Source: Candidatus Poribacteria bacterium
GTDB taxonomy: Bacteria; Poribacteria; WGA-4E; WGA-3G
Direction of reading: 5' to 3'
Assembly (NCBI GenBank): GCA_965214095.1
Contig: OZ243938.1
Coordinates: forward strand, 3,200,001 to 3,264,000
DNA: 64,000 nt
The translations under genes and the position numbers were made by a program. The notes beneath the pieces are model-generated. The model saw only the letters and a list, made by a program, of their open reading frames with translations, searched no databases and was not told where the DNA came from. Position 1 is the stretch's first letter. Each line of letters begins with the position of its first letter. Shown here one piece after another: positions 28,967 to 63,331 of the stretch.

Positions 28967-28994
28967 TGCACCCGTTTTGCCGTTCCACGCGTCA
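28967..28994 (+). promoter_or_regulatory. ECF-type promoter of array gene 1 (TGCACCC-N16-CGTCA)
   Basis: Motif recurs before all nine intact sigma genes. Confidence 0.7.
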
Positions 28995-29045
28995 CTAATG
29001 GTTGAGAAGAAAAATCCGATAGATTCTTTTTTATGGAGGAATCCA

Positions 29046-32000
29046 ATGAAAAACGAAGATGCAGAACTGATTCAACGCACGGTTGCTGGTGATGATACTG
29101 CCTTCTCAGAATTGGTGAAGAAATATCAGAGACAAGTTCATGCACTTGCATGGCGGAAAACAGGGGATTTTCACACAGCTGAAGATATTACACAAGACAC
29201 ATTCCTCAAGGCATATCAGAGACTCCACACACTCAAGCAACCCCACAGATTCGCAGGATGGCTTTATGTCATTGCAAATCGTCAATGTCTTGCATGGTTT
29301 CGGCAAAAACGTCTGAACAAGCAAACATTAGAGAACATAGACACACCCGATGCTAATAGTGATGCATACTCAAGACATATCGTAGAGGAACAAGCAAAAA
29401 CTGCTGAACAGGAACAGCAGGAAGTCGTCAAGAAGTTGCTTGAGACGTTGAAAGAGAGTGATCGTACCGTCATCACCTTACACTATTTTGCTGAAATGAC
29501 GTGTGAACAGATGAGCGAGTTTTTGGGTGTATCCGCAAACACAATAAAGAGCAGACTACGCCGCGCACGGAATAGATTAAAACAGGAGGAACCGATGATC
29601 CGAGAAGCAATTACAAACTTCAAAATATCTCCAACACTTACTGAAAATATAATGCAAGATGTTTCACGGATCAGTCCTACTACCCCATCAGCAAGCAAAC
29701 CTTTGATCCCGTGGATGATAGGTGCTACGGGTGCAGTATTGATTGTGCTGATGTTTGGGATTGGTGGTCAGTTCTTAGCACAATTCCAAAAACCGTATAG
29801 TTTAGATGCTCAAGCTGAAAGGACGGTTGAACTTATTGACGCGCCAATTGTTCAAAACCTTCAGATAGAATCAGATAACCGAAACCAAACAGGGAATAGA
29901 ATTGCTTTAGAAGGTAGTAATGATGGCAATGAAGAGAATGCAAATCAGACTATAGGTGATGGTGACTACACTAAATTGAATCTACCAGAAGGAGCAAAAC
30001 GAAGGTTAGGCAAGGGAGTGCTGTCCGATATGAAGATCTCCCCTAATGGCACACACATTGCAATTGCAAGTTCCTCTGGTATTTGGCTATACAATGTCAA
30101 TGCAAAACAGGAAATGAAACAGTCAAAGATTGCGTTACTTACTGGACATGAAGGTGTCGTTAGGCAGTTGACTTTTTCACCTGATAGCAAAATGTTTGCC
30201 AGTATTGGTTTAGACAAGACACTCCGACTTTGGGAATCCACTACCGGAAAACTCCTATTCACGTTGACCACCCCTAAACCTACAGGTGAATTTCGTGCCG
30301 TGAAGTTCATAAGAGATGGTAAAATCCTCGCTGGACGTTGTTCGGATGACTATAAAGTCTATCTATGGGATGTTACAACAGGAAAATATTTGGAATCATT
30401 TCGTCCGAAACTTCCTATGATTAGATTAGGACAGAACAGAAATTGGCAGTTTGCTACAGACGCTTTTTTCGATCCTATCGGTAACATCATGTTTGCGGTT
30501 GGAAATAAAGACGGTACGATTAGTATTCAAGAGGGGCGTACCGGTCTTGAGAAAAATAGACTTGTTGGGTATACAGATGAATCTCAATTTTTCAAGGTGG
30601 ATAATGAACATGATCGTCTTAACCCAAGAAAACCTACAGTGAGAAGATCTTTAGTCCATCCGGGTGATAAACTCTCTGTTCCAAAACAACTAAAAGCTGA
30701 CGGAACTCCTTTTCCTATCCAATACCTGTTGTCTGATCAAAATCATTCCAGTCATAATTATGAAAAAATACCTACAAAATGGATAAATACCTTAGATTTT
30801 TCACCCGATGGTAATACTCTTGTCAGTAGAAGTAAATACATGGTCGGACAAGAATCAGGTGCTTTATTTGGCGGAGGTCCAACTGAAATCTGGGATGTTG
30901 AAACAGGTGAACAACTTTCGTCGCTCACTTTGTGTGTTACGGATGTAGAAATTTCAGGTGATGGAAAAACACTTGCTATCACCGGTGATGGTGGTGTTTC
31001 TGTATGGGATATTCCTACACGGCAGGAGATTGCGGTGTTTAACGATGCAGTAAAGGTTTTATTTTCTGGTAATGGAAAAACACTCATCATTATAGAACAT
31101 GAACGTTATATATTATGGGACATCACTACCAGACGCGATATTAGTTCTGTCAATCTTGTCGGCGAGTCGTTTACTCCTTTTTTAGATCATTTTGGTATAT
31201 CACATGATGACACGATGTTTGCTACCACAGATACAACTGGCAAAGTAAATGTGTGGGAAACAAGAACTAGCACGCAACTTCGAACGTTCACAACAGGTTA
31301 TACAGATTCTATCACGGGTTTAATGTTTACAGATGATGGAAAAACTCTCATTAGTGGGACTTCTGCTGGAAATATCGAATTCTGGGATACAAACACCGCC
31401 AATATAAGGTCAAGGATTAAAACAGATAAAAGAAGTATAGATGGGTTGATGCTTTCCACAGAGGATAACACTACATTAACTGTGATGAGTAATAGTGATC
31501 TAATGCGATGGGATGTATCCACAGGCCAATTGATTGATGCCTACACCATATTGAATGCAGGCAACTGGTTCGGCAGTGAATTGTTGGAGGATGGAACACA
31601 AATACGTATGAAAGCATTCAGTTTCACGCCAAACGGTGAAAGATTGACTACACCAAATTCTAAAACCAAAATGATTGATGTTTGGGATATTACTGAAGGT
31701 AAGAATCCGCGCCTTCTCACAACAATTGAGTATGAAAGGGGTCCCATATTGCTTTCTCCTGATGGAGCGATACTCGCGAGCACGAGTAAATCAAACAACG
31801 CTGCTGATTTATGGATTACTTACACTAGTGAAAAGTTTTCTAAAATCAGTTTTCCTGAAAATATGCTTGATAGACACAACCACATTTATTCCTTGGCATT
31901 TTCTCACGATGGAAAAACATTTGTTGGTGGCACGAAGAAAAGAGAAATACATTTGTGGAATTTTGCCAGGTCCGAACACATTGGAATACTCAAGGCACAT

Positions 32001-32252
32001 AAGCACGTAGTATGTGCATTAAAGTTTTCACCTGACAATACCATCCTTGCAAGCGGAGATACAGGTGGCGGAATTTGCTTGTGGAAAATCCCCGATAGAA
32101 CTCTTCTCTCTCAATATAAATCGTCTGGTGGATATGTAAGTGAGTTAGCATTCTCGCCTGATGGAAAAACCCTCGCAAGCACAAATGGCGCAAGCACAAT
32201 AGCTAAAAACCCTGGTGGAACGATATACTTATGGGATGTGCCAACAAAATAA
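29046..32252 (+). CDS. Array gene 1: ECF sigma + TM + WD40 propeller (1068 aa)
   Basis: sigma2 'AEDITQDTFLKAY...FAGWLY', sigma4 'LGVSANTIKSRLRRAR', TM 'PWMIGATGAVLIVLMFGIGG', WD40 'FSPDG...LWD'; SD GGAGG. Confidence 0.9.
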   Translation: MKNEDAELIQRTVAGDDTAFSELVKKYQRQVHALAWRKTGDFHTAEDITQDTFLKAYQRLHTLKQPHRFAGWLYVIANRQCLAWFRQKRLNKQTLENIDTPDANSDAYSRHIVEEQAKTAEQEQQEVVKKLLETLKESDRTVITLHYFAEMTCEQMSEFLGVSANTIKSRLRRARNRLKQEEPMIREAITNFKISPTLTENIMQDVSRISPTTPSASKPLIPWMIGATGAVLIVLMFGIGGQFLAQFQKPYSLDAQAERTVELIDAPIVQNLQIESDNRNQTGNRIALEGSNDGNEENANQTIGDGDYTKLNLPEGAKRRLGKGVLSDMKISPNGTHIAIASSSGIWLYNVNAKQEMKQSKIALLTGHEGVVRQLTFSPDSKMFASIGLDKTLRLWESTTGKLLFTLTTPKPTGEFRAVKFIRDGKILAGRCSDDYKVYLWDVTTGKYLESFRPKLPMIRLGQNRNWQFATDAFFDPIGNIMFAVGNKDGTISIQEGRTGLEKNRLVGYTDESQFFKVDNEHDRLNPRKPTVRRSLVHPGDKLSVPKQLKADGTPFPIQYLLSDQNHSSHNYEKIPTKWINTLDFSPDGNTLVSRSKYMVGQESGALFGGGPTEIWDVETGEQLSSLTLCVTDVEISGDGKTLAITGDGGVSVWDIPTRQEIAVFNDAVKVLFSGNGKTLIIIEHERYILWDITTRRDISSVNLVGESFTPFLDHFGISHDDTMFATTDTTGKVNVWETRTSTQLRTFTTGYTDSITGLMFTDDGKTLISGTSAGNIEFWDTNTANIRSRIKTDKRSIDGLMLSTEDNTTLTVMSNSDLMRWDVSTGQLIDAYTILNAGNWFGSELLEDGTQIRMKAFSFTPNGERLTTPNSKTKMIDVWDITEGKNPRLLTTIEYERGPILLSPDGAILASTSKSNNAADLWITYTSEKFSKISFPENMLDRHNHIYSLAFSHDGKTFVGGTKKREIHLWNFARSEHIGILKAHKHVVCALKFSPDNTILASGDTGGGICLWKIPDRTLLSQYKSSGGYVSELAFSPDGKTLASTNGASTIAKNPGGTIYLWDVPTK

Positions 32253-32609: not shown

Positions 32610-32637
32610 TTGACAAACTGCTTCAATCTGCTAAAAT
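32610..32637 (+). promoter_or_regulatory. Sigma70-type promoter of the sigma-less array gene 2
   Basis: TTGACA-N16-TAAAAT with extended TG; similar to 35064-35091. Confidence 0.6.
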
Positions 32638-32686: not shown

Positions 32687-35017
32687 ATGGAGATTATTAT
32701 GCAAGAAGTATCACGACTCACACCTACTGTCCTTCCAGGAAGCAAACCTATAATCCCTTGGGTGATATGTGCTGCAAGTGCGTTGTTGATTACATTGATG
32801 TTTAGTATTAGCAGTAGCAGTTTTGGCAATGAAGAGAATGCCGATCAGGTATTAGGTGACCAAGGTGATTATACCCGATGGAATTTACCGATAGGAGCAA
32901 AACGAAGACTCGGTAAAGGAATGTTTACCGATATGCAGCTTACACAGGATGGAAACAGATTGGCAATTGCAAGTTCTGCAGGAATCTGGCTTTATGATGT
33001 GAACACGGGACAAGAAACCGCGCTGCTTACAGAAAATGCTGATTTAATTGGGTTAGTTGCATTTTCTCCCGATGGTAAAACCCTCGCAAGTACTGGCGGG
33101 AACAACACTTGTCGAATCTGGGACGTTGAAAAACAGGAACTTCTATTAACATTTAAACTGCCAAATTATTGGATGCGTTCCATAAGATTTTTGGATGATG
33201 GGAAAACGCTTGTTGGTGAAGGATTTATTGACGACAAGTCACACACACTAACTGGAAAAAAACTAAGATGGGACATTCCGAAAGTCTGGATGTGGGACAG
33301 TAGTTCTGGCAGATTGTTAAATACTTTCACGACTAAATTGCCGAAATTTGATTTGCTAACAGATGCAAGAAGCAGTGTACCATTTGAAGGATTTTCTAAC
33401 GGTTCCCGTTCCCTATTCGCTTATGATAATAATGAGTATGAGACTATCGTAAAGGATGGAATCACAGATCAAGAGATATTCACAATCCCCCGCACTGGAC
33501 AAGAGATAAGAGAATTTGTTTTCTCCCAAGATGGCAAACAACTTGCAATTGCTTATGACAGGAGTGTACATCTCTGGGATATTGGTTTTGATTCAGGTAA
33601 TCAGAAAGCGATATTTCCAATTCACATTGCTAATTTCTCTAGAGATGCCTCTATACTCTCTTTTTCAAGGGATGGAAAGATACTTGCTGCTGCTATCGGC
33701 AAAGGTATTACTGTATGGAATGTTGAAACAAGCTCACACATTACTACATTTATGAATGCTAAAGGTGGCTTATGGGAATTTGTGTTATCTGCTGATGGGT
33801 CAACTGTTGTTACAATGGATTATCAAGGGACAGTAGATTTTTGGTCGGTTACAAATGACAGACATGAACGCACCTTGACGACTGGTTATTCAGGTGGATT
33901 CACCAGTTTGACGTTTGCTCATGATGGAAAAACTGTTGCGACCACTGCTCTTGGAAAAATCCATTTATGGAATGCTGACACTGGCACTGAAAAGTTGCAT
34001 CTACAAATACCAATGTATAGGGAAATTAAGAACAAATATTCCGAATGGCATACCCGTGGTGCCGTTGTACCTGCAGATATTAGAGGAGATATTATCAGCC
34101 TTGCTTTCTCGAAAAATAACAGCACGGTTTACACTCTCAATATATCAGGGAAAATTGGGGTTTTGGATGTTAACACTGGTAACTATCGTATTTCTAACAT
34201 TCTTGCAGACGTTGCTACCGTCAAATTTCTACCATATCATTCAAGTCCATTAACCAAAGGAGGAGCCAGAGTCCCTACACCTAGGACACCAAATATATAC
34301 CACCTCGTTGCAACATCCTACGACAGTATTTCAGTGTTTATCCGCGCAGCCGCTTTCTCGTCTAATGGAGAGTTATTAGCAACCAAAAATCAAGAAGGGT
34401 CAGTTGAGGTTTGGGATCTTACTATCCCAAGACGTATATACACACTTGCAGCGCAAAATCCAAATGTGAAAGATAATCCTGCGATTATAACTGAATTTAC
34501 AGAAGATGGAAAATTGCTTGCGATCCGTGATGGCATGGATATTCACTTGTCAGATGTCCATTCTGGTGAAACCTTAGTAAAATATAAGATACCTGAAAAG
34601 AAACCAAATATTATAGACAAATTTATGTCAATATTTGGTCCAAAAGAAGTCATTCAGAAAATTGACGCAGTAGCTTTGGCACAGGGAGGAAAAAACATCT
34701 TAGCTGCAAACGACAATAAGACAATCTATCTGTGGGATATTGTAACACATGAACGTATCTTAACAATTAGGGATCATAAACACGCAGTATGCAAGTTAGC
34801 ATTTACAAACGATGCAACAATACTTGCGAGTGGAGATGTAAGTGGGGTAATCCATCTATGGGTTATTCCAACGGGAGAGAAACTTGCTACATATAAACCG
34901 TATGCAAGTCCAATTACCCAATTAGTTTTTTCACCTGATGGAAAGACCCTTGCAACTGAGAATTTGTATTCTCACCTTTCAGGAACTATACTGCTATGGG
35001 ATGTCCCCTCCAAATAG
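32687..35017 (+). CDS. Array gene 2: sigma-less paralogue (anti-sigma-like helix + TM + WD40)
   Basis: Starts within the 'NFQFSPNL-MEIIMQEVSR' motif; keeps TM 'PWVICAASALLITLMF'; sigma2/sigma4 and most of the linker absent; frame open for 776 aa. Confidence 0.7.
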   Translation: MEIIMQEVSRLTPTVLPGSKPIIPWVICAASALLITLMFSISSSSFGNEENADQVLGDQGDYTRWNLPIGAKRRLGKGMFTDMQLTQDGNRLAIASSAGIWLYDVNTGQETALLTENADLIGLVAFSPDGKTLASTGGNNTCRIWDVEKQELLLTFKLPNYWMRSIRFLDDGKTLVGEGFIDDKSHTLTGKKLRWDIPKVWMWDSSSGRLLNTFTTKLPKFDLLTDARSSVPFEGFSNGSRSLFAYDNNEYETIVKDGITDQEIFTIPRTGQEIREFVFSQDGKQLAIAYDRSVHLWDIGFDSGNQKAIFPIHIANFSRDASILSFSRDGKILAAAIGKGITVWNVETSSHITTFMNAKGGLWEFVLSADGSTVVTMDYQGTVDFWSVTNDRHERTLTTGYSGGFTSLTFAHDGKTVATTALGKIHLWNADTGTEKLHLQIPMYREIKNKYSEWHTRGAVVPADIRGDIISLAFSKNNSTVYTLNISGKIGVLDVNTGNYRISNILADVATVKFLPYHSSPLTKGGARVPTPRTPNIYHLVATSYDSISVFIRAAAFSSNGELLATKNQEGSVEVWDLTIPRRIYTLAAQNPNVKDNPAIITEFTEDGKLLAIRDGMDIHLSDVHSGETLVKYKIPEKKPNIIDKFMSIFGPKEVIQKIDAVALAQGGKNILAANDNKTIYLWDIVTHERILTIRDHKHAVCKLAFTNDATILASGDVSGVIHLWVIPTGEKLATYKPYASPITQLVFSPDGKTLATENLYSHLSGTILLWDVPSK

Positions 35018-35137: not shown

Positions 35138-35166
35138 TGCACCCGATTTGTACCTAACCCGCGTCA
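35138..35166 (+). promoter_or_regulatory. ECF-type promoter of gene 3 (TGCACCC-N17-CGTCA)
   Basis: Recurrent motif. Confidence 0.7.
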
Positions 35167-35226: not shown

Positions 35227-38200
35227 ATGAAAGACAATGACGTTGAATTAATCCACCGCATCCTTGAAGGTGATGATTCTGCTTTCTCCACCTTAGTTGA
35301 GAAATATCAGAAGCAGGTTCACGCACTTGCATGGCGTAAAATCGGTGATTTCCATATTGCCGAAGATATAACACAGGACACCTTCCTGAAAGCATATCAG
35401 AAACTCACGACACTTAAGAACCCGCAACGATTCGCAGGATGGCTCTATGTGATTGCAACACGTTGCTGCCAAGCATGGCTACGCAAAAAACAGATACAGA
35501 CCGAATCGTTAGAAGAAATTGATAGTGATGCGTTAGAACCTGAGGCATATTCACGATATGTTTCTGAGGAGGAGACGAAAGTAACCGTTGCAGCACAACG
35601 TCAAGTCGTCAAGAAACTCCTTGCAACATTGCCTGAGAGTGAACGCACGGTGATAACATTACACTACTTTGGTGAGATGACGTGTGAAAAGATGAGCGAG
35701 TTTTTAGGTGTATCCGCGAACACAATAAAGAGCAGATTACGCCGCGCACGGAACCGTTTGAAACAAGAGGAACCGATGATCCGAGAAGCAATTACGAACT
35801 TCAAAATATCTCCAACACTTACTGAAAATATAATGCAAGAAGTATCACAGATCAAACCTACTCCCCCTTCAGCAAGCAAACCTTTAATTCCGTGGATGAT
35901 GGGTGCCGCAGGGGCAGTATTGATTGCACTGATGTTTGGTATAGGTGGCCAGTTCTTAGCACGTTTCCAAAAACCGTATAGTTTAGATGCTCAATCTGAA
36001 AGGACGGTTGAACTTGTAGATGCACAGGTTGTTCAAAACCTTCAGATAGAATCTGACAACAGAAATCAAACAGGGATGCGATCCGATTTAGGTGGTAGAA
36101 GTAATGGCGATGGAGAGAATGCGGAACAGGCTTTAGGGGACCAAATCGATTACACACGATGGAATTTGCCGATGGGGGCAAAACGGAGATTCGGAAAAGG
36201 AATATTGAACGACATGGAGCTTTCACCTGATGGCAGAACAATTGCAAGCAAAGGGTATCGTAGAACAATTTGGCTATGGGATGCGGAAACGGGTGAACAC
36301 TTGCGTACAATCAAGGTGCCAAATGCTCCAGCCACAGGTTATCAATTTTTTAAAAATGGCACTATGGAAACAACAGTTATTCCTCTTAGTCAATACAATC
36401 CTGACGATGACAGAGCTTCAATTATAGGTTTTAGCGGTTTTAATAATAAAAAAACCAAAGCTGCATACATTGTTTCCTCCGGTCCACTCAGATCAATTGA
36501 ATTCTTAGCAGACAGTAAAACTCTTATGACTCAGAATTTGGATGGTACTGTCTGGTTATGGGATATCACTTCAGGAGAACAGAAAGCATTATTTCGTCCA
36601 GAACTACCTGGATTGAAACTTGATAGTTACATAAGTTGGGTTAATCTTTATCCTGATCAATGGCGGCTGGCGGCTGATGTCTATTTTGCTCCTTCAGGTG
36701 AAGTTATTTATGCTCTCGCTGCGGGAGATAGAATTGGTACAATTTACATACAAGATGGACACACTGGTAAACTATTACGCACACTGGAGGGACAAAGTAA
36801 AATTATAAGCAAAAAAAATACCATAGGTCGAATAGGTTATGGACAAAAAACACCTATTCAAAGTCGCTTGCAAATTCCGGGAATAAAAGATGTCTTTTCA
36901 GGTAAGGAACCTCGGCGAGGCGTGGAATGGATAACAGAATTATATTTTGCGCCAGATGGCAAAACACTTGTGAGTAAAAGCCGATTCAGAAACAGTAATA
37001 GGAGTAGTTATAGTGGTGCCGTTGAACTTTGGGATGTTAAAACAGGTGAACTGCTAACAAGACATGGATTGGGCACAGATTTAAAGTTCTCAGGAGATGG
37101 AAAAGCACTCGCATTTATGAATGGGGTGGGAAGAGGGTACAAGGGATGTGTGATATGGGATCTTGCAGATCGTCGTAAAATTGCTGAATTTGCGGGTAAG
37201 GTTGACCTAAAGTTTTCAAGAGATGGGAAAACATTCACTATTATACGGAATGACAGTTTAGAGATGTGGGATATCGCGACGCGTCGCAAAATCACATCAA
37301 TGAGTACACCTCCAGAACTGTTGACAGTTCTTCCAGACCGGCATGCATTTTCAGGAGATGGTACAATCTTTGCTGCTGTAAATAGATACGGCACAGTCAA
37401 TTTATGGGAAACACAAACTGACACACAACTACGCACCCTCACTACAAACTATTCAACACCAATTACTACGATGGCATTCACACACGATGGCAAATCGCTT
37501 GTAAGTGGGAACGCTTCCGGCAACATTCAACTCTGGAATTTAAACACTGGTAAAGTAAGCAGCACACTAACATCACCTGAAAACAAGTCTATTTATGGAT
37601 TAGTTTTTGCAGAGGACAATGCCACACTCGTCAGTGGAGGCATAAGAAACTTTGATAAATGGAATATTACCACTGGAAAAAGAGTTAACACTTACACTCT
37701 ACAATGGGCAGTGGCACAAGTTTTTAGCAGTACCTCTCATTATGGTATTGGGAGTTCAGGCGATACCGTCTTTACATGGCCCACTACGATTATAGCATTG
37801 ACCCCAAAAGGCGGAAAAATCGCCAAAACTATTTGGTCTTCACATGAAAGAAAAACTGAGGAAGATGGAAGTGAGATTAAGGTATGGGATATTCCGACTA
37901 GCGAACACCTATGTACCGTAACAAATGAATCTTTTGGTCAAACGTTAGCATTCACATCCGATGGAAATATGTTCGCTACTTTGGATGAGGATATATCATA
38001 CACTGTAGATGAACATACTGGTAAGAAAGTTGGAGATTTTAATAAATGTATAGTGTACTTATGGGACACATATACTGGCAAAAAATTAGCAGCATTTGAC
38101 GTGCCGAAGGATCCAGAAAATAACTTCAATCGACCTGATATTTATGCTGGAGTTTTTACACGCGACAGCAAAACGTTTGCTGCTGCTGGGAGTTTTGGAG

Positions 38201-38789: not shown

Positions 38790-38818
38790 TGCAACCGTTT
38801 TCCTCCTTAGTCGCGTCA
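38790..38818 (+). promoter_or_regulatory. ECF-type promoter of gene 4 (TGCAACC-N17-CGTCA)
   Basis: Recurrent motif. Confidence 0.7.
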
Positions 38819-42175: not shown

Positions 42176-42203
42176 TTGACAAACCCACCTGATTTGGTAG
42201 AAT
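42176..42203 (+). promoter_or_regulatory. Sigma70-type promoter (identical copies at 45578, 48954, 52539)
   Basis: TTGACA-N16-TAGAAT with extended TG. Confidence 0.65.
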
Positions 42204-42250: not shown

Positions 42251-42279
42251 GGCAACCTTTTTACATATATCCTGCGTCA
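42251..42279 (+). promoter_or_regulatory. ECF-type promoter of gene 5 (GGCAACC-N17-CGTCA)
   Basis: Recurrent motif. Confidence 0.7.
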
Positions 42280-52613: not shown

Positions 52614-52642
52614 TGCACCAGTTTTATCCGTAAGTCGCGTCA
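52614..52642 (+). promoter_or_regulatory. ECF-type promoter of gene 8 (TGCACCA-N17-CGTCA)
   Basis: Recurrent motif. Confidence 0.7.
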
Positions 52643-55600: not shown

Positions 55601-55672
55601 GCTGTTGATGGAAGGACTTTATATCTTGGTACACAATTTGAAGGTATGCTTCGTTTTACGCTTGAAGAATAA
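52667..55672 (+). CDS. Array gene 8: ECF sigma + TM + Asp-box propeller
   Basis: sigma4 'LGVSANTIRSRLRRAQ'; SD GGAGGT. Confidence 0.9.
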   Translation: MQKNDVELIHQILDGDDTAFTELVTKYQKSVHALVWKKIGDFHIAEEITQDTFLKAYQKLSSLKSPQRFASWLYVIASRRCLAWQRRKRILTKSLEETNSAQIEKATYSQYVVNENMRITAETQRDVVKKLLAKLPESERTIITLHYFSEMSSSEIGAFLGVSANTIRSRLRRAQQRLQKEETMIREALDHFKLSPNFTENIMQEISRLKPTPSASKPLVPWTVAAASAVLIVLMLGIGSQNLVRFQQPYTLDAQAETTVELVDTPIVLNLDTKPDVRNQLGNSNALGISENDGQKPNEVLLAAAETEDEDKVSTSKQQWIQSEPIIGSAVENLFASDKGELYTVLDAHIYKWQDNNTGWQQLSGDIRDYHDRLNETTIITDVPIAKWDNILYIALENLLLASRDDGKTWKTVHEWQPDYRHPRELVLTEQAFWVSHNRGVFRSEDKGNTWQEVDVELIQGPIFLIAIQNTVFAGSYTGLYRWNTSSWERVELPVAEALLVYKAAAAKERLYVLAFLGYDFYDDKAIREGRQRTWWIFRSDDLGNSWKDITPTNAWPLKAEAPEIQLVAAGETIMLMGKGIVRSIDGGDTWLPFQRPNTLPTNIKYYWPSVALNEHVFYAIGRGLHRTTDGGKTWSKVNITPNRRWHGIQNLLVHKPKERIENSQPTLYGTAGIGIVKTTDEGKSWKQIQVEIPLDTSVREDQPSIIQMVKSDGVLYAKGSSDYPIGELRFYRVSEDDNTLVSIQGIPTFDSRELKEYLRQSQNPSLEELQKRFSGATQFFKWLLQSTPHQQDMLIRDGFRGQFTVSSNTYYSEYNYKLFRWEPGDTEWKDIGQEETSSKTWGHLKLAVSGDTVYVGKRDGHLHVSYDKGDNWIDLTPALPFPVRFFKKIMTAGSTVYVATDAGILTSDDGRNWRVVADTEGRNLIMEELAVDGTTLYGITQDTGIYRLKSDSDTWKQIIAEIPESAKVNLTSNGTSLAVDGRTLYLGTQFEGMLRFTLEE

Positions 55673-55736: not shown

Positions 55737-55764
55737 TGAGACTATTTCACCTCATACCGAGTCA
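55737..55764 (+). promoter_or_regulatory. Variant ECF-type promoter of gene 9 (TGAGACT-N16-AGTCA)
   Basis: Same position and spacing as the other motifs; repeated before gene 10. Confidence 0.6.
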
Positions 55765-55812: not shown

Positions 55813-58800
55813 ATGAAAAATGCTGATGTCGAACTCATCCAACGTGTCCTTGATGGCGATGATACTGCGTTCTCAGAACTAGTTAACAAATATCGCAAGT
55901 CTGTACACGCGCTTGCATGGCGGAAGGTTCAAGACTTCCATATCGCTGAAGATATCACACAGGAAACATTCCTAAAGGCATACAAAGGAATACCAACGTT
56001 GAAGGAACCGCAATCTTTTGCAGGTTGGCTATATGTTATTGCAACAAATCACTGTAATACTTACCTTGGTAAGAAACGTTTGCCGACTCAGTCTTTGGAA
56101 GATACCGATAATGAAGAGTTGGAAAAAGCAACCTATTCCAGCTATGTCAGTGCGGAAAACGAGCGGGTATCAGTAGAAACGCAGCGTGAAGTCGTCAAGA
56201 AGTTGCTTGCTAAGTTGCAGGAGAGTGACCGAACGGTCATCACACTCTATTACCTCGGGGGAATGACGTATGAAGAGATAAGCAAGTTTTTAGGTGTATC
56301 GGTAAGTGCAATCAAGAATCGACTCTACCGAGCGCGCCAGTTTCTAAAGAAGGAGGAACCTATGATAAGAGAAGCTTTAGAGAATTACCAAATCACTCCA
56401 AATCTCACTGAAAACATCATGCAAGAAATATCTCGTCTCAGACCTACACCTTCCACCAGCAAACCCTTAGTGCCGTGGGCAGTTGCTGCTGCAAGTGCAA
56501 TCTTAATAGTGTTGATGCTTGGCATAGGTAGTCAGAACTTAGTTCGTTTTCAGCAACCTTATTCATTAGATGCACAAGCAGAGATGACGGTGGAACTCGT
56601 TGACACACCTATTGTGCTAAATATAGATACGAAACCAGATGTCCGAAATCAATTGGGCAATACAAATGCATTGGGTATAAGTGAGAGTGAAGGTCAGAAA
56701 CCAGATGAAGTCCTGTTGGCTGCCGCAGAAACCGATGAAGAAGACAAGGTATCCGTCCCTAAACAGCAGTGGATTCAGTCTGAACCTATCAAAGGAAGTG
56801 CTGTGAAAAATTTATTTTCTACCGATGCAGGAGAACTCTACACTGTTCTTGATGCACACATATACAAATGGCAAGACAATAAAACGGGATGGCAACAGTT
56901 GAGTGGTGACATCAGAGATTATCATGAAAAGTTGGATGAAACTATACTCATAACGAATGTTCCTATAGCAAAATGGGACAATACCCTTTATATTGCTTTG
57001 AGTAATTTATTTTTGGCTTCAAAAGATGATGGTAAAACATGGGATATAGTTCATTCATGGTCACCTGACAATTTTGGACCGCGTAACTTGGTGTTGACTG
57101 AACAAGCGTTTTGGGTGAGTCTTAACAGCGGTGTTTTCCGTTCTGAAGATAAAGGGAATACATGGCAGGAGGTAGATGTAGAATTATTTAGGGGTTCCAT
57201 CTTCTTTAAAGCCATACAAAACACAGTATTTGCTGGATCATACACAGGGTTGTATCGTTGGAACACCGGCAGCTGGGAACGTGTAAAATTACCGGTAGCT
57301 GAGGCATTAATAGTCCACGAAGTCGCAACCACTAAAGATCGATTGTATGTAATGGCATCATTAGGTCATGAATTTTATGATGATAAAGCAGTCCGGGAGG
57401 GACGACAACGGACTTGGTGGATATTCCGCTCAGATGATTTGGGAGATTCGTGGAAAGATATTACACCGACAAATGCTTGGCCCCTAAAAGCCAAGTCACC
57501 TGATATCCTACTTGCTGCTGCGGGTGCAACCATTATGTTGATGGGAAGGGGTATTGTGCGTTCTATCGATGGAGGAGATACTTGGTTGCCCTTACAAACA
57601 CCACCCACGCTATCTACAGTCAGGTTTTCTAAGCCTTCTGTGGCATTAAATGAACGCGTGTTCTATGCCATAGGAAGGGGACTACACCGTACTACTGATG
57701 GAGGCAAATCATGGAGCAAGATAAATATCACGCCGAATAGGAGACGGAGTGGCATACGCAACTTACTCGTGGATAAGCAGAATGAAAAAACGCAAAACAG
57801 CCAGCCGACTCTTTATGGGACAGCAGGAATTGGCATAGTAAAAACTACTGATGAGGGTAAATCTTGGAAGCATATTCAGGTAGAAATACCTATTGATATT
57901 CCTGTAAGAGAGGACCAACCCTGGATAACGCAGATAGCCAGTTCTGACGGTGTTATCTATGCCAAAAGTAGTAGTCATTACCCATTCGGAGAATTGCGAT
58001 ATTATCGCGTATCTGAGGATGGGAACAAGTTAGTTCCTATTCAAGACATGCCTACATTCGACTCAAGAGAATTAAAAGAGTATTTACGCAAATCTCAAAA
58101 TCCCTCTTTAGAAGAGCTACAAAAGAGGTTTCTGGGAGCAACACTATTCTTTAAATCGTTGATCCAAACAGATCCAGTCCAGTTACCTCAACGAACAAAG
58201 GATGCACTGATCCAAGGAGGGAATAATGGAACGTTTGCTGTTAGTGGTAATACGTTCTATATGGAATACAACCTAAAACTATTCCGATGGGAACCTGGTG
58301 ATACAGAATGGCAAGACATCGGACAAGAAGATACTTATCCAAGGACAGCGGAATATCTCCAACTGGCAGTGTCTGGGGACACCGTCTATGTAGGAAGAAG
58401 GAATGGACATCTTGTCGTGTCGTTCAATAAAGGAAATAACTGGATTGATCTTACACCGGGACTGCCGTTTCAGGTAAAATCTTATAAAGATATAGTTGTT
58501 GACGGAACCACGGCATGTGTAGCAACTAACGCAGGCACCCTTATATCGGACGATGGGAAAAATTGGCGAGTCGTCACAGATGCAGATGGAACTCATCTCA
58601 TTATGGAAGAATTGGCTGTTGATGACACAACGTTTTATGGAATCACTAAAGACACAGGTATCTATCGTTTAAAGAGTGATAGTGACACTTGGGAACAGAT
58701 TATCACAGAAATACCTGAAAGTGCAAAAGTGAATATAGCCGATAACGGAGCTTCTCTGGCTGTTAAGGGCAGCACCTTATACTTAGGTACACGAAGAAAC

Positions 58801-58830
58801 GGCATGTTTCATTTTACTCTTGAAGAATAA
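55813..58830 (+). CDS. Array gene 9: ECF sigma + TM + Asp-box propeller (1005 aa)
   Basis: sigma4 'LGVSVSAIKNRLYRAR'; propeller very similar to gene 8; SD GAGGT. Confidence 0.9.
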   Translation: MKNADVELIQRVLDGDDTAFSELVNKYRKSVHALAWRKVQDFHIAEDITQETFLKAYKGIPTLKEPQSFAGWLYVIATNHCNTYLGKKRLPTQSLEDTDNEELEKATYSSYVSAENERVSVETQREVVKKLLAKLQESDRTVITLYYLGGMTYEEISKFLGVSVSAIKNRLYRARQFLKKEEPMIREALENYQITPNLTENIMQEISRLRPTPSTSKPLVPWAVAAASAILIVLMLGIGSQNLVRFQQPYSLDAQAEMTVELVDTPIVLNIDTKPDVRNQLGNTNALGISESEGQKPDEVLLAAAETDEEDKVSVPKQQWIQSEPIKGSAVKNLFSTDAGELYTVLDAHIYKWQDNKTGWQQLSGDIRDYHEKLDETILITNVPIAKWDNTLYIALSNLFLASKDDGKTWDIVHSWSPDNFGPRNLVLTEQAFWVSLNSGVFRSEDKGNTWQEVDVELFRGSIFFKAIQNTVFAGSYTGLYRWNTGSWERVKLPVAEALIVHEVATTKDRLYVMASLGHEFYDDKAVREGRQRTWWIFRSDDLGDSWKDITPTNAWPLKAKSPDILLAAAGATIMLMGRGIVRSIDGGDTWLPLQTPPTLSTVRFSKPSVALNERVFYAIGRGLHRTTDGGKSWSKINITPNRRRSGIRNLLVDKQNEKTQNSQPTLYGTAGIGIVKTTDEGKSWKHIQVEIPIDIPVREDQPWITQIASSDGVIYAKSSSHYPFGELRYYRVSEDGNKLVPIQDMPTFDSRELKEYLRKSQNPSLEELQKRFLGATLFFKSLIQTDPVQLPQRTKDALIQGGNNGTFAVSGNTFYMEYNLKLFRWEPGDTEWQDIGQEDTYPRTAEYLQLAVSGDTVYVGRRNGHLVVSFNKGNNWIDLTPGLPFQVKSYKDIVVDGTTACVATNAGTLISDDGKNWRVVTDADGTHLIMEELAVDDTTFYGITKDTGIYRLKSDSDTWEQIITEIPESAKVNIADNGASLAVKGSTLYLGTRRNGMFHFTLEE

Positions 58831-59115: not shown

Positions 59116-60105
59116 ATGAAACGCACCTATATGTTGTTGGAAATGACACTCCTGTTCAGTTTGTTTCTGCTTACCGTAAATGCTTGGGGAGCTCAGTATA
59201 TTTCTTTCAGTTCTAACCGTACAGGGCAAAGCGATATCTACATCATTGATACAAACGGCAAGAATCTACGCAACCTAACAAACCATCCCGCAGAGGACAC
59301 TGGTGCTACGTGGGCACCGGATGGGCGTTCTTTTGCTTTTGCGTCGAACCGTGATGGAAATTATGAAATCTATATTAAGAAATTCAATGAAGCTCAGGCG
59401 CGTCGGTTGACACACCGTCCGGAAAACGATTTTGATCCTGTCTGGTCAGCTTTTTCTCCTGCCTGGTCACCTGATGGAGATTGGATTGCTTTTGTAGCCA
59501 AGAGAACAGGGGCATCTCATATCTACAAAATAGATATCAACGGTGAGAATCTACAGAGACTGACTAACCAAGGAGGTAGCCCAAACTGGTCTCCAGATGG
59601 AAAATCAATTGCTTTCGATGTTTTTGGGAGCGGTATCTATGTGATGGACGCAGATGGAAAAAATCCTAGACAGATTAAAATCCAGGTAAATATAATCGCT
59701 TTTATTTTCGATCCTGCTTGGTCGCCTGATGGAAAACAGATTGCTTGTGTTCTCGTTAATGAGGGGCAGGATATCTACATCATGGATACAGATGGACAAA
59801 ACGCCCGACGCATTTCACCTCTTGGGACTTGGAGCGTCAGGCCTGCGTGGTCTCCTGATGGTAAGTGGATTGCCTACCAGGCCGACGATGCAGAAAATGC
59901 GAATCCTCAGGGAAACCCGAATGCGGAGCGACACATTTTTATCGTTTCTGTTGAGGGGGATGAGCCACGGCAAATCACACAAGATCCTGTGCGAAATTCT
60001 TCTCCCGCCTGGATCCCCGGAAGTTTTTTCTCCGTTTCTCCGACTGTGAACACCCAGACAACCCTCTGGGGTCGGTTGAAACAAGCTGAACGTATGACGC
60101 AATAA
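59116..60105 (+). CDS. Secreted TolB-like (PD40) beta-propeller
   Basis: Signal peptide, repeated 'PAWSPDG', C-terminal 'SVSP...TTLWGRLKQ'; SD AGGAGG. Confidence 0.85.
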   Translation: MKRTYMLLEMTLLFSLFLLTVNAWGAQYISFSSNRTGQSDIYIIDTNGKNLRNLTNHPAEDTGATWAPDGRSFAFASNRDGNYEIYIKKFNEAQARRLTHRPENDFDPVWSAFSPAWSPDGDWIAFVAKRTGASHIYKIDINGENLQRLTNQGGSPNWSPDGKSIAFDVFGSGIYVMDADGKNPRQIKIQVNIIAFIFDPAWSPDGKQIACVLVNEGQDIYIMDTDGQNARRISPLGTWSVRPAWSPDGKWIAYQADDAENANPQGNPNAERHIFIVSVEGDEPRQITQDPVRNSSPAWIPGSFFSVSPTVNTQTTLWGRLKQAERMTQ

Positions 60106-60227: not shown

Positions 60228-60255
60228 TGAGACTATTTCGCCTCATACCGAGTCA
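60228..60255 (+). promoter_or_regulatory. Variant ECF-type promoter of gene 10 (TGAGACT-N16-AGTCA)
   Basis: Near-identical to the gene 9 motif. Confidence 0.6.
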
Positions 60256-60301: not shown

Positions 60302-63300
60302 ATGAAAAATGCTGATGTTGAACTCATCCAACGTGTCCTTGATGGTGATGATACTGCGTTTACCGAACTGGTTAAGAAATACCAGAAATCTGTTCACGCG
60401 CTTGCATGGCGGAAGGTTCAAGACTTCCACATTGCAGAGGATATCACACAAGAAACATTCCTAAAGGTATATCGGAATCTGTCAACACTGAAGGAACCGC
60501 AATCTTTTGCAAGTTGGTTGTATGTCATAGCAACAAACCACTGCAAGACGTGGCTTAGTAAGAAGCAAGTGTGGACACAATCGTTGGATAACTTCAATAG
60601 CGCAGAATTGGAAAAAGCAACCTATTCCAACTATGTCAGTGCGGAAAACGAACGGGTATCAGTAGAAGCACAGCGAGAAGTCGTCAAGAAGTTGCTTGCA
60701 AAACTACAGGAGAGTGATCGCACGGTCATCACACTCTACTACCTCGGGGGAATGACGTATGAAGAAATCAGCAGATTCTTAGGTGTATCGGTCAGTGCGA
60801 TCAAGAATCGACTCTACCGAGCGCGCCAGTTTCTAAAGAAGGAGGAACCTATGATAAGAGAAGCTTTAGAGAATTACCAAATCACTCCAAATCTCACTGA
60901 AAACATCATGCAAGAAATATCTCGTCTCAGACCTACGCCTACTGCCAGCAAACCGCTTGTACCGTGGGCAGTTGCTGCTGCAAGTGCTATTTTAATAGTG
61001 TTGATGCTTGGATTAAGCAGCCAACAATTACTCCGTTTTCAGAAACCTTTTTCATTAGACGCACAAGCAGAGATGACCGTTGAACTTGTTGACACACCAA
61101 TTGTGCTAAATATAGACACGGTCCCAGATGTGAGAAATTTACTGGGTAATACAAATGCGTTGGGTATAAGTGAAAATGAAGGTCAGAAACCAGATGAAGT
61201 CCTGTTGGCTGCTGCAGAAACCGAAGATGAGGACAAGGTATCCACTCTCAAACAGCAGTGGATTCAGTCTGAACCCATTAAAGGTAGTCCTGTTGATAGT
61301 CTAAGAGTTACCACTGAAGGAGATCTGTATGTTCTCCTACGTAGTCTAGGAAACCCTAAGATCCTGAAGTTAACTTCGGATGGAAACACTTGGCAATCTT
61401 TTGAAGGTAATCCACCAGAAACTGCCTGGAGCTTTAACGGACCTATACTAAAGTGGAATGACACGTTTTACACTATACTGTATAATGAACTCCTTGCAAC
61501 AAAAGATGAAGGTAAAACATGGGATTTACTATATTCGTGGCAAGATGCAAATGGTGCGACCGAATTTGTACAGATAGAACAAGCACTTTACATCGCATTT
61601 AGAAATGGAATCTTTAAATCAGAAGATTCTGGCAAGACATGGAAATCAATACACGATGAGAAAATAAAGCATATTGAATCATTGTTCAAAATCCAAGACA
61701 CACTATTTGTCCGAACTTACAGAGAACTCTATCGTTTGGAAGATGATAAATGGAAACGCATTGAATTTCCTGCCCCAGTCAGGCGGATCATTTCAATTGC
61801 CGGTTCTGAAGATAAACTTTATGTTGTGATATTTTTCAATTGGGAAGAAGCAAATGTAGACAGAGAAAAAATGGAACAGGGACTGGTGCGTGGATGGTGG
61901 ATATACCGTTCAACTGACCTTGGCAATTCATGGACAGATATAACACCGACAAACGCTTGGAACATAAATGGATGGCCCCCCAATCCAAAGATGATTGCAA
62001 CTGGTGATACACTTCTCGTAATGGAACGAGGTATGGTACGTTCCACCGATGGTGGGGATACATGGATGCCGCCACAACAACCAGACACATCACCGTTAAT
62101 GAGCAGTGAAAACCATGCTGTTGCGTTAGATGAAAACACCTTTTATATCAGTAACAGAGACGGACTCCATCGTTCCATTGATGGCGGTAAATCTTGGGAA
62201 ATGGTAAAAATTCCTCAGGATAAGACGAGGAGAGTAGTTTGGAACCTAATCAAAGATATTGGGACTAGAAAAAGGCAGAACGAGCAGCATACTCTATACG
62301 GAATAGTTTCAGTTGGCAAAATAGCAAAAACTACGGATAATGGTAAGTCTTGGAATGACGTTCAAGTTGATTTTCCAATGTCAAAACAACTGACTGAACC
62401 CTTACCAACATTTATACAGATTAATCAATCTGAAAATGGAGTCTATGCAAAGGGTGGTTCAATTGGTGGAGGAAAAATAAGACACTACAAAGTATCAAAA
62501 AATGGATACACATTAGAACCTATACAAGACTTGCCTACCTTCGATTCGTTTGAATTAAGAATGCATTTGTATCAAACACAAGATCTTTCTATTGAAGTGT
62601 TAAAAGAAGATTTTACTGGGGCGACTCAATTCTTCAAACAGATGCTCCAGTTAACCCCACAAGAAAGGGGTAAACTTGAAGGACTTGGATTACTTGGACC
62701 GTTTGCTGTCAGTGGTGACACATTCTATTCGGAATATAACTTTAAACTCTTGAGATGGGAACCCGGCTATACTGAATGGTACGACACTGGACAAGAGGAA
62801 ACCGCAGAAGTATCTCTGAAGACGGGCATTTATAGAGCCAACGCTATCATTCCTGAACTTGCTGCTTTAGGTGACACTGTCTATTACGGAAAACGGGATG
62901 GACATCTCGTTGTATCGTTTGATAGAGGTAATAATTGGGTAGATATCACTCCGGGTTTGCCGTTTAAAGTTAGAACTTTCTATGATATAGTATTTGCTGG
63001 ATCTACAGTGTATGTGGCAACAGACGCAGGTATCATTACATCAGATGATGGGAGGACTTGGCAGGTCGTCAATGATTCGGATGGAACAAATCTTATCATG
63101 GAGCACTTGGCTACCGATGGAACAACACTCTACGGAATTACCAAAATGACACGTGTATTTCAAAAAAATGCTGTATTTCGTTTGGAAAACGGCACTTGGA
63201 ATCAAATTGTTACCAGTATACCTGCTACATTTGAAATGACTGATATCATAACATCTCTCGCTGTTGATGGTAATACACTATATATAAGTACTGGAAAAAA

Positions 63301-63331
63301 CGGAATGCTTTACTATAGCCTTGAAGAGTAA
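60302..63331 (+). CDS. Array gene 10: ECF sigma + TM + Asp-box propeller
   Basis: Sigma class of gene 9; propeller unlike gene 9. Confidence 0.9.
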   Translation: MKNADVELIQRVLDGDDTAFTELVKKYQKSVHALAWRKVQDFHIAEDITQETFLKVYRNLSTLKEPQSFASWLYVIATNHCKTWLSKKQVWTQSLDNFNSAELEKATYSNYVSAENERVSVEAQREVVKKLLAKLQESDRTVITLYYLGGMTYEEISRFLGVSVSAIKNRLYRARQFLKKEEPMIREALENYQITPNLTENIMQEISRLRPTPTASKPLVPWAVAAASAILIVLMLGLSSQQLLRFQKPFSLDAQAEMTVELVDTPIVLNIDTVPDVRNLLGNTNALGISENEGQKPDEVLLAAAETEDEDKVSTLKQQWIQSEPIKGSPVDSLRVTTEGDLYVLLRSLGNPKILKLTSDGNTWQSFEGNPPETAWSFNGPILKWNDTFYTILYNELLATKDEGKTWDLLYSWQDANGATEFVQIEQALYIAFRNGIFKSEDSGKTWKSIHDEKIKHIESLFKIQDTLFVRTYRELYRLEDDKWKRIEFPAPVRRIISIAGSEDKLYVVIFFNWEEANVDREKMEQGLVRGWWIYRSTDLGNSWTDITPTNAWNINGWPPNPKMIATGDTLLVMERGMVRSTDGGDTWMPPQQPDTSPLMSSENHAVALDENTFYISNRDGLHRSIDGGKSWEMVKIPQDKTRRVVWNLIKDIGTRKRQNEQHTLYGIVSVGKIAKTTDNGKSWNDVQVDFPMSKQLTEPLPTFIQINQSENGVYAKGGSIGGGKIRHYKVSKNGYTLEPIQDLPTFDSFELRMHLYQTQDLSIEVLKEDFTGATQFFKQMLQLTPQERGKLEGLGLLGPFAVSGDTFYSEYNFKLLRWEPGYTEWYDTGQEETAEVSLKTGIYRANAIIPELAALGDTVYYGKRDGHLVVSFDRGNNWVDITPGLPFKVRTFYDIVFAGSTVYVATDAGIITSDDGRTWQVVNDSDGTNLIMEHLATDGTTLYGITKMTRVFQKNAVFRLENGTWNQIVTSIPATFEMTDIITSLAVDGNTLYISTGKNGMLYYSLEE

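Follow-up and report, generated by a model that had tools for sequence, protein, structure and literature searches.

Why would a bacterium keep, side by side on one strand, ten large paralogous genes, nine of which join a complete sigma factor to a beta-propeller through a single transmembrane (TM) segment? The question is raised by a 64,000-nt stretch of a Candidatus Poribacteria genome (assembly GCA_965214095.1, contig OZ243938.1, positions 3,200,001 to 3,264,000; hereafter the window, numbered from its first letter), in which these genes, g1 to g10, occupy 28.9–63.3 kb of the plus strand. We argue that they probably encode autoregulated one-component transmembrane sigma factors of the extracytoplasmic function (ECF) type, freed by regulated proteolysis when a ligand binds the periplasmic propeller. 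The argument rests on the architecture of the proteins, on the predicted promoters in front of their genes, on the exchange of modules between paralogues and on the recurrence of such arrays in other Poribacteria.

Organization of the Array

A sequence-only reading of the locus had described nine co-oriented genes with the order sigma, helix, TM, linker and propeller, plus one truncated copy; Pfam matches, hydrophobicity and alignment agree on the nine. The array and the genes embedded in or adjoining it are as follows (all on the plus strand; open reading frame, ORF).

g1, 29046..32252, +: ECF sigma–helix–TM–linker–WD40 ectodomain, 1068 aa from the likely ATG (longest frame from 28977); Pfam Sigma70_r2 and WD40; TM at ORF residues 244–262
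g2, 32687..35017, +: sigma-less and linker-less TM-anchored WD40 protein, 776 aa; start inside the conserved helix; no sigma Pfam match
g3, 35227..38526, +: ECF sigma–TM–linker–WD40 ectodomain, 1099 aa; Pfam, hydrophobicity, alignment
g4, 38982..41912, +: ECF sigma–TM–linker–Asp-box/BNR double-propeller ectodomain, 976 aa; Pfam, hydrophobicity, alignment, Asp-box count
g5, 42328..45315, +: architecture as g4, 995 aa; the protein modelled with AlphaFold2 and Foldseek
g6, 45731..48694, +: architecture as g4, 987 aa from the likely ATG (longest frame from 45695)
g7, 49106..52126, +: architecture as g4, 1006 aa; 5' 0.9 kb and upstream DNA 94–99% identical to g5, ectodomain 46–62%
g8, 52667..55672, +: architecture as g4, 1001 aa; ectodomain 79–93% identical to g9 in nucleotides, sigma part 61–73%
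g9, 55813..58830, +: architecture as g4, 1005 aa from the likely ATG (longest frame from 55783); sigma part and promoter of the g10 type
PD40/TolB-like beta-propeller gene, 59116..60105, +: between g9 and g10; Pfam PD40 at 1.8e-43; signal-peptide-like N-terminus in the translation
g10, 60302..63331, +: architecture as g4, 1009 aa; Pfam, hydrophobicity, alignment, Asp-box count
g11, 63533..64000, +: cut by the window end; signal peptide and a WD40 module homologous to the g1–g3 ectodomains

The spans are those of the ORFs as called, with three changes of start. The longest frames of g1, g6 and g9 appear to begin too early, since the alignment of the paralogues starts at 'MKN' and the additional 5' codons run into the promoter motif; 29046, 45731 and 55813 are therefore the likely start codons. 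All ten frames are intact, and a 300-nt DNA module encoding the N-terminal part occurs nine times at spacings of 3.1–6.2 kb. The array is interrupted by the PD40/TolB-like gene. When its intergenic DNA was scanned for anti-sigma candidates, no ORF longer than 65 aa was found, so that the array contains no separate anti-sigma gene, as the sequence-only reading had stated.

Sigma Domain, Membrane Segment and Topology

In nine of the ten proteins (approximately 976–1099 aa), Pfam places Sigma70_r2 and Sigma70_r4_2 at the N-terminus. These are the only two sigma regions present, as in ECF (group 4) sigma-70 proteins, and the NCBIfam model of the ECF superfamily, TIGR02937, scored 97–107 bits (cut-off 42.9) in all three sigma-bearing proteins scanned. 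None of the specific equivalog models reached its cut-off in these three proteins, the best being SigW with 102–114 bits against 209. Among solved structures, SigW, RpoE and SigH gave the best matches, the nearest being SigW of B. subtilis (E 2.8e-31).

Behind sigma4 comes a short conserved helix, 'SPNLTENIMQEVSRL', with the core '..TENIMQE.S', in which E, I, M, Q and S never vary among the ten genes, g2 included; the conserved helix that had been noticed at first inspection is thus a constant feature of the array. According to the alignment, sigma4 ends only about 40 residues before the TM segment, and no FecR, RskA or zf-HC2 (the zinc-binding anti-sigma domain, ZAS) match was found in the array proteins at Pfam E values up to 0.01. 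Each of the ten proteins has one strongly hydrophobic segment, at about residues 220–244, with a Kyte–Doolittle mean of at least 1.9; weaker peaks of 1.5–1.84 lie within propeller strands. The segment carries an invariant proline and an invariant glycine (P221 and G237). It is followed, in the nine sigma-bearing copies, by a conserved linker of about 45 residues, '..RFQ.PYSLDAQAE.TVELVD.P...N', then by an acidic low-complexity spacer and the ectodomain.

Because a sigma factor is necessarily cytoplasmic and there is a single TM segment, we regard it as a strong inference that the proteins lie N-in, C-out, with periplasmic propellers. Two further observations agree with this prediction, to which the sequence-only reading had also come. 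The flanks of the TM segment in 167 family sequences (see below) contain on average 2.84 K+R on the N-terminal side and 1.47 on the C-terminal side, in modest agreement with an N-in orientation. In addition, the gene at 63533 (g11) has a signal-peptide-like N-terminus followed by 'NLPEGAKARLGKG', the WD40-module start that had been recognised as common to both kinds of gene; in its alignment with g2 (36% identity, E 2e-22), the hydrophobic segment falls on the TM segment of g2.

Ectodomains

The ectodomains of the nine sigma-bearing genes measure roughly 650–850 aa and fall into two classes, the same two that had been assigned by eye. Pfam finds WD40 in g1–g3, and in g4–g10 it finds Sortilin-Vps10 above the cut-off in seven of seven and PSII_BNR in four. 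The motif S-x-D-x-G-x-x-W occurs six to eight times per ectodomain in g4–g10 and is absent from g1–g3. With these repeated blade motifs and the Sortilin-Vps10 matches, g4–g10 have the hallmarks of BNR/Asp-box repeat proteins, a class that Pfam covers with DUF6242/DUF6242_C and Sortilin-Vps10 (PF25852 being DUF6242_C by name in the ESM Atlas output).

The ectodomain of g5 was modelled with confidence by AlphaFold2 from a 96-sequence alignment (predicted local distance difference test, pLDDT, about 85–95 over residues 320–995): it is nearly all beta, with one helical insertion at about 750–800. In a Foldseek comparison of this model with the PDB, GH74 xyloglucanases came first (E 2e-19 to 1e-15, template modelling score, TM-score, 0.3–0.4, 12–14% identity, root mean square deviation about 11 Å), followed by the periplasmic double-propeller sensors BT4673, BT3049 and BT4663 of Bacteroides hybrid two-component systems (HTCS; E about 1e-15, TM-score 0.21–0.31). 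Sequence-profile matches to GH74 and Ycf48 are weak and restricted to the Asp-box blades. The structural check proposed for the propellers thus gave a beta-rich model whose best fold matches are GH74 and HTCS propellers, and we consider tandem Asp-box propellers a well-supported prediction of the fold class.

Such matches might suggest that the ectodomains are mainly enzymes or adhesins, such as GH74-like glycosidases or binding proteins, to which the sigma part is secondary or vestigial. GH74 enzymes are indeed the best fold matches, a sub-threshold match to the glycosylhydrolase family F510_1955 exists in NCBIfam (90–92 bits against a cut-off of 175), and conserved versions lacking the sigma part are found. 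However, conservation within the proteins is highest in the sigma part, where purifying selection is strong (ratio of nonsynonymous to synonymous substitution rates, dN/dS, 0.12–0.20), this part is coupled to conserved cognate-looking promoters, and the GH74 catalytic residues could not be reliably aligned at 12–14% identity. We therefore hold this explanation to be very unlikely.

A Family of Poribacteria Arranged in Tandem

The array belongs to a large family. A word-seeded protein search returned at least 5913 proteins at E values up to 0.001 from 8000 scored candidates; organism names accompanied 11 of the 120 proteins listed, and all 11 were Candidatus Poribacteria. A scan of one genome per species gave at least 626 pattern matches, at least 597 of them confirmed, and the best 80 resolved into 56 loci, 54 titled Poribacteria (Candidatus or uncultured) and two 'uncultured bacterium'. 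Within these loci, each of up to 21 kb, sigma–TM–linker genes number one in 16 cases, two in 8, three in 13, four in 12, five in 6 and six in 1. Co-oriented tandem copies (two to six) are consequently present in 40 of the 56, from many independent metagenome-assembled genomes (MAGs) and including chromosome-level records. Gene order is partly kept as well: one locus (L014) reads g2-like, x, g4-like and g7-like, and another (L004) has a g5-like gene (92%) followed by a g8-like one (82%). The comparison of synteny and copy number across Poribacteria that the sequence-only reading had called for therefore speaks for a genuine, conserved arrangement.

The helix–TM–linker module alone retrieved 281 representatives at E values up to 0.001 (223 at 1e-10 and 92 at 1e-30) from 1.84 billion clusters formed at 50% identity, and in nearly all of them it sits at residues 185–294. 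What follows the module varies. The loci and the window together contain 182 ORFs with the module, of which 102 carry Asp-box ectodomains, 50 WD40 and 19 others, 11 being too short to tell. WD40 was found in 30 of 50 representatives, and one representative, P0195 (the only one with its domain table shown), has a transglutaminase core. Among 13 members analysed with Pfam, three have long WD40 arrays, one a CarboxypepD_reg domain, and nine have extensions of approximately 470–850 aa with no match. The ESM Atlas contains a Poribacteria-dominated cluster combining sigma with Kelch, and, lower in the ranking with scores of 0.80, Planctomycetota clusters combining sigma with WD40 or PD40.

Several ectodomains in the loci have no Pfam match at E values up to 1e-5: L005:3938-6886, L007:6910-9831, L008:6247-9270, L030:11338-14265, L015:9311-12676, L006:13157-16585, L006:17124-20591, L013:13275-16733 and L021:13576-17043. 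They appear to represent at least two further sensor folds.

Promoters

Each sigma-bearing gene appears to form its own transcription unit, with a predicted ECF-type promoter that often lies 3' of a sigma70-like one. The predicted sites are as follows.

28967..28994, +: g1 ECF-type promoter (TGCACC ... GCGTCA), by motif scan
35138..35166, +: g3 ECF-type promoter, TGCACC class, by motif scan
38790..38818, +: g4 ECF-type promoter, TGCAAC class, 163 nt 5' of the ATG, by motif scan
42251..42279, +: g5 ECF-type promoter, GGCAAC variant, by motif scan
45653..45681, +: g6 ECF-type promoter, TGCAAC class, by motif scan
49029..49057, +: g7 ECF-type promoter, GGTAAC variant, by motif scan
52614..52642, +: g8 ECF-type promoter, TGCACC class, 24 nt 5' of the ATG, by motif scan
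55737..55764, +: g9 ECF-type promoter, TGAGAC class with the -10 element GAGTCA, by motif
60228..60255, +: g10 ECF-type promoter, TGAGAC class, by motif
32610..32637, +: g2 sigma70-like promoter TTGACA-16-TAAAAT, with no ECF-type motif; read by eye, outside the scanned range
42176..42203, +: g5 sigma70-like promoter, 11/12, TG-extended, by consensus scan
35064-35091 (g3), 45578-45605 (g6), 48954-48981 (g7) and 52539-52566 (g8), +: equivalent sigma70-like sites, by consensus scan

The strict motif G[CT]A[AC]C[CA]-N15-16-GCGTCA, a pattern derived from the same seven sites that it counts, occurs seven times in the window (0.075 in shuffles), always on the plus strand and upstream of g1 and g3–g8. 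Together with the variant TGAGAC-N16-GAGTCA in front of g9 and g10, an ECF-type motif precedes all nine sigma-bearing genes and is missing from sigma-less g2, the pattern expected, at the level of motifs, of ECF autoregulation. The sigma70-like sites call for more caution, as their overall number (55, against 50.7 in shuffles) shows no enrichment. Only the five TG-extended intergenic sites matching 11 of 12 positions are meaningful. These are the five best of their kind (32.8–52.7 kb) and stand 50–75 nt before the ECF motifs of g3 and g5–g8; a further 11/12 site, lacking the TG, lies inside g6.

The same organization extends to the family. From the 56 loci, 167 genes had enough upstream DNA, and 123 of them could be assigned to one of three -35 classes: TGCACC (52), TGCAAC and its variants (32) and TGAGAC/TGTGAC/TGAAAC (39), with 44 left unassigned. 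The distance from motif to ATG is fixed at about 24 or 46–52 nt. Strict matches in the loci and the window total 90, and in 85 cases the site directly precedes a family gene. The other five comprise three inside family stop-to-stop frames, one close to the end of L036 and one ahead of a 178-aa ORF in L011. The alignment columns most closely tied to the -35 class, 153, 172 and 165, all belong to sigma4, which also supplies six of the top twelve. Such an association fits a scheme in which each sigma would read its own promoter.

Shuffling of Sigma and Sensor Modules

Paralogues in the array do not share a single history. The DNA of g5 and g7 is 94–99% identical over codons 1–300 (synonymous divergence, dS, 0.14) and 98% identical over the 180 nt of upstream DNA compared, but only 46–62% identical over most of the ectodomain (dS 1.47), rising to about 90% again at the 3' end. 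In g8 and g9 the reverse is seen: the sigma part stands at 61–73% (dS 0.95), against 79–93% (dS 0.42) for the TM segment, linker and ectodomain. Genes g9 and g10, in turn, have the sigma part and promoter class in common and differ in their sensors. Across these comparisons, a single sensor type thus occurs with two sigma/promoter classes and a single sigma/promoter type with two sensors, and the switch points lie within or beside the conserved helix–TM–linker DNA. The discordance between the g5/g7 and g8/g9 pairs shows that sigma and sensor modules have been shuffled. All dN/dS values lie between 0.12 and 0.43, a sign of purifying selection.

Seen at the level of the window, the segments 41913–43230 and 48695–50010, about 1.3 kb of intergenic DNA, promoters and the first approximately 300 codons, are 94–99% identical between g5 and g7, and the remainder is about 50% identical. 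Near-identity amid divergence of this kind points to a recent gene conversion or segmental exchange.

Segments so similar could also confuse assemblers, and the array might then be an artefact of collapsed or chimeric paralogues, or else a graveyard of decaying duplicates. However, its ten frames are intact, dN/dS is well below 1, two to six tandem copies recur with partly preserved order in the 40 loci from independent MAGs, and the protein database places the window proteins on a contig of 5,206,209 bp. We consider such an origin highly improbable, and have rejected both the co-assembly artefact and the pseudogene graveyard.

Sigma-Less Members

The tenth gene, g2, had been taken for a truncated copy. 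It does lack the sigma part and the linker; however, it is not broken, as it keeps its TM segment and WD40 ectodomain and has a full-length orthologue (L014:722-3106, 78% identical) from which it differs with a dN/dS of 0.19. A conserved orthologue under purifying selection means that g2 is a retained gene, not debris. Its more distant relatives (L036:14647-17022 and L040:7466-9856) are 47–50% identical, all are approximately 790–800 aa long, and in-frame remnants of the helix or of the end of sigma4 are found upstream of their starts. Asp-box counterparts exist too, namely P0121 (813 aa) and P0184 (812 aa). The sigma-less forms are probably membrane-anchored propellers without an output; that they act as decoys or co-receptors is speculation.

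Proposed Mechanism

Taken together, these features suggest the following scheme. A complete ECF sigma factor would be tethered to the inner membrane through the short conserved helix and the one TM segment, and would present to the periplasm the conserved juxtamembrane linker and a WD40 or GH74-like Asp-box double-propeller sensor. A sigma70-type promoter would provide basal expression, and the ECF-type promoter, read by the gene's own sigma or by that of a sibling, would add positive autoregulation. The ligand is most plausibly a glycan, or else a surface or host protein; its binding to the propeller would license a cut in the conserved linker and then an intramembrane cut of the TM segment with its P, G and S residues, as happens in IutY and in classical anti-sigma factors. 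A sigma domain of about 23–25 kDa would thereby be set free to bind RNA polymerase. Finally, recombination in the helix–TM–linker DNA would re-pair sigma/promoter modules with sensor modules, giving partly orthogonal channels. Autoregulation, proteolytic release, the kind of ligand and the regulon are what we infer in this scheme.

Proteolysis is favoured for several reasons. There is no anti-sigma domain, since the stretch of about 40 residues between sigma4 and the membrane has no FecR, ZAS or RskA match, and tethering is the simplest off-state. The TM segment contains the invariant P221 and G237, and the linker is conserved across sensor classes, as would be expected of a shared processing or docking site.

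Nevertheless, a number of points weigh against this interpretation, in which cleavage, release and ligand are predicted elements. No gene for a protease of the RseP, Prc or DegS type was found in the window; its first 28.7 kb, in which proteases and partners were sought, gave only unrelated genes (for example a sulfatase, Ro60, a TnpB-like protein and an S58 peptidase). Neither the window nor the flanks of the 56 loci offer a convincing target promoter outside the family, and the self-promoters would suit cross-activation just as well. Relatedness confounds the link between sigma4 and the -35 class, as does the fact that each promoter is physically joined to the 5' end of its gene. The TM-scores of 0.3–0.4 to GH74 are low, which makes the ligand class a guess. 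Lastly, in an AlphaFold2 model of residues 1–295 (133 sequences) sigma2 is confident, but sigma4, helix, TM segment and linker have pLDDT below 50–70 and the predicted TM-score (pTM) is 0.34; the full-length g5 model is likewise of low confidence at residues 28–317. Structure prediction therefore lends no support to a cleavage module or to cis-inhibition.

Two other modes of control must be considered at this point. The sigma factor might be governed by a conformational change or by a partner without proteolysis, the partner being an envelope protein such as the secreted PD40/WD40 or sigma-less paralogues. WD40 and PD40 are protein-binding folds, and the array is interspersed with conserved propeller paralogues that are secreted or lack the sigma part. 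A non-proteolytic mode has, moreover, been proposed for extensions of the ECF57 and ECF42 types, ECF57 appearing under 'protein interaction' in the relevant part of one review (PMC8999054). However, a conformational signal would have to traverse a single TM segment to a sigma about 40 residues from the membrane, AlphaFold2 gave no confident packing of the helix on sigma2/sigma4, and the cysteine pair invoked for ECF57 is present in just 32 of 167 sequences. We judge this mode unlikely.

Alternatively, the sigma factor might be active while tethered, recruiting RNA polymerase to promoters brought to the membrane in the manner of ToxR or CadC, with the ectodomain modulating it directly. In formal terms the proteins are built like a membrane one-component regulator, and the stretch from sigma4 to the TM segment is short and conserved. 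Against this, we know of no precedent for a membrane-anchored sigma acting in the holoenzyme, and the invariant proline and glycine would suit a substrate of an intramembrane protease. IutY, the characterised fusion, needs release, according to the account available to us (PMC8999054). Activity in the tethered state seems to us quite unlikely, and regulated proteolysis remains our preferred reading.

Comparison with Known Systems

ECF sigma factors with C-terminal extensions represent the second commonest mode of ECF regulation (PMC8999054, PMC7826278, PMC4937300), and the array had originally been compared with one such group, ECF57. As characterised in the passages of the classification that deal with it, ECF57 (formerly ECF01-Gob) is confined to Planctomycetes (100%), has about two TM helices and a completely conserved pair of cysteines in sigma2 and sigma4, averages 5.3 copies per genome, has no anti-sigma factor and no conserved target promoter motif, and bears WD40 in the TM-containing extensions of 21% of one subgroup (PMC7826278). 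The array proteins resemble it in their ECF core, long TM-containing C-terminal extension, occasional WD40, multiple copies and lack of an anti-sigma factor. They differ in having one TM segment, where two would return the C-terminus to the cytoplasm, and in their cysteines: 161 of 167 sequences have that of sigma2 (position 81) but only 32 that of sigma4, and hence the pair, and within the window both are found only in g1 and g3. Furthermore, the organism names found here are Poribacteria, three conserved promoter classes at fixed distances from the ATG account for 123 of the 167 genes, the linker behind the TM segment is conserved, the sensor is most often an Asp-box double propeller, and the genes form tandem arrays. 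On the described features of the group that were compared, membership of ECF57 is thus not upheld.

Membrane release has been proposed for both ECF57 and ECF52 in the relevant sections of two papers (PMC8999054, PMC7826278). In the account given there, IutY of Pseudomonas putida, an ECF243 sigma/anti-sigma fusion released by Prc and RseP, is the only characterised TM-fused sigma, and for SCO4117, of the actinobacterial ECF52/ECF53, proteolysis is inferred and the outer part includes a carbohydrate-binding domain (PMC8999054). Like these, the array proteins fuse a sigma factor through a TM segment to an extracytoplasmic part. In contrast to them, they have no anti-sigma domain (FecR-like or ZAS), only about 40 residues and a propeller, and IutY takes its signal from a TonB-dependent receptor. 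A FecR-like domain between sigma4 and the TM segment, typical of the IutY (FecI–FecR) kind, was not detected by Pfam at E values up to 0.01. A likeness in the sensor is found in actinobacterial ECF128s2, for whose anti-sigma factors extracytoplasmic BNR/Asp-box, sortilin and YCF48-like domains have been proposed as sensors (PMC7826278, in the part concerned with this group). There, however, the sensor sits on a separate anti-sigma factor encoded at position +1, whereas in the array it is fused to the sigma.

The Bacteroides HTCS proteins BT4663, BT4673 and BT3049 resemble the array proteins in their double-propeller fold, although no Reg_prop Pfam match was found in the latter. In that genus HTCS comprise many paralogues, each sensing a glycan through a periplasmic double propeller of about 700 aa that is anchored in the inner membrane and shares one polypeptide with a transcriptional output. 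Their output is a histidine kinase, a response regulator and an AraC domain, whereas that of the array is a sigma factor. GH74 xyloglucanases, enzymes with a catalytic Asp pair and two seven-bladed propellers around a cleft, likewise have tandem Asp-box propellers, but they are secreted and have neither a sigma nor a TM module.

In Poribacteria themselves, abundant WD40 domains were treated by Kamke et al. (2014) as eukaryote-like repeats, and the word 'sigma' is absent from the main text of that paper. The full-text literature, with subscription journals and bioRxiv supplements outside its scope, yielded no description of the family, its Asp-box sensors, the arrays or the promoter classes, and nothing that joins Poribacteria, 'sigma factor' and WD40. 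Texts combining Poribacteria, ECF and sigma were unrelated by title and abstract, and one sigma passage in the Poribacteria 'sigma factor' literature concerns an Acidobacterium-like antagonist. The earlier suggestion that no tandem array with Asp-box sensors had been described thus holds for this literature, but the concept of a protein that is both sensor and transcription factor was already in print for other ECF groups.

Other Features of the Window

Hairpins resembling repetitive extragenic palindromes (REP-like; core GGTTCGGTTTCCTAACCGAACC) are found at 28845–28869, 32375–32473, 41997–42097, 45401–45501, 48775–48875 and 52182–52435, mostly as inverted pairs about 80–180 nt 3' of the stop codon of the upstream array gene, and also at 1076–1097. 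In the variants GGTGCGG..CCGCACC and GGCGAGG..CCTCGC the stem is kept by changes on both sides, and similar hairpins stand upstream of family genes in L021 and L022. The longest spacer of the array, 52127–52666 before g8, contains two REP pairs and a short tandem duplication (AATTCAGCATTTGCAAAAGA twice). A palindrome at 58993–59035, 5' of the PD40/TolB-like gene, has 19-nt arms that are 95% complementary and a loop of 5 nt; it might serve as an operator or as a terminator. At the place corresponding to the PD40/TolB-like insertion, the related locus L004 is without a gene.

Outside the array, 20001–21707 (minus strand) encodes a bacterial Ro60 orthologue with TROVE and Ro60 vWA domains, and no Y RNA was found in the window at Rfam gathering thresholds. 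Rfam in fact gave no match of any kind in the window at these thresholds, so that neither the hairpins between the genes nor the surroundings of Ro60 fit a curated RNA family. A TnpB/IS605 OrfB-like protein with HTH_OrfB_IS605, OrfB_IS605 and Cas12f1-like TNB domains is encoded at 7792–9375 (plus strand), its 5' end overlapped in another frame by a 200-aa ORF (7704–8306). The 922-aa ORF at 15027–17795 (plus strand) has no Pfam match at E values up to 1e-5 and is followed by a DUF4956 protein and an SdiA-regulated/phytase-like protein. At 23296–26056 (plus strand), a sulfatase gene and a type I phosphodiesterase/sulfatase-like gene overlap by 41 nt beside an AAA-like ATPase; sulfatases are consistent with a life on sulfated polymers.

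Implications for Poribacteria

ECF sigma factors with fused regulatory extensions are recognised one-component systems, few of which have been studied, and the design principle seen here is already known from ECF57, ECF52 and IutY. What sets the present case apart is its scale, its tandem organization, the diversity of its sensors, the shuffling of modules and the cognate-looking promoter of each gene. The receptor repertoire proposed at the outset, in which each protein would be at once sensor and transcription factor, is supported by our analysis and strengthened by the module shuffling and the self-promoters.

A possible, though doubtful, extension of this idea is that Poribacteria maintain a recombining 'receptor library', in which the helix–TM–linker DNA is the crossover hinge that re-pairs sensors with a few sigma/promoter classes, and sigma-less and secreted copies, as decoys or co-receptors, tune the many partly orthogonal channels. 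Its sensors would include WD40, Asp-box double propellers, Kelch, transglutaminase-like domains and at least two folds without a Pfam match. If this were true, the library would be a natural source of orthogonal sigma–promoter pairs, each with a built-in receptor. If, in addition, the propellers read glycans and proteins of the sponge host or of particles, the phylum would depend on this library as its main means of sensing environment and host.

Overall, the family would amount to a phylum-wide, highly expanded signalling system in uncultivated sponge symbionts, whose abundant WD40 proteins had previously been framed as eukaryote-like repeats. It would offer a natural experiment in the modular rewiring of sensor, sigma and promoter, testable classes of sigma/-35 specificity with possible orthogonal parts, and a clean system in which to ask how a sigma factor leaves the membrane without an anti-sigma domain.

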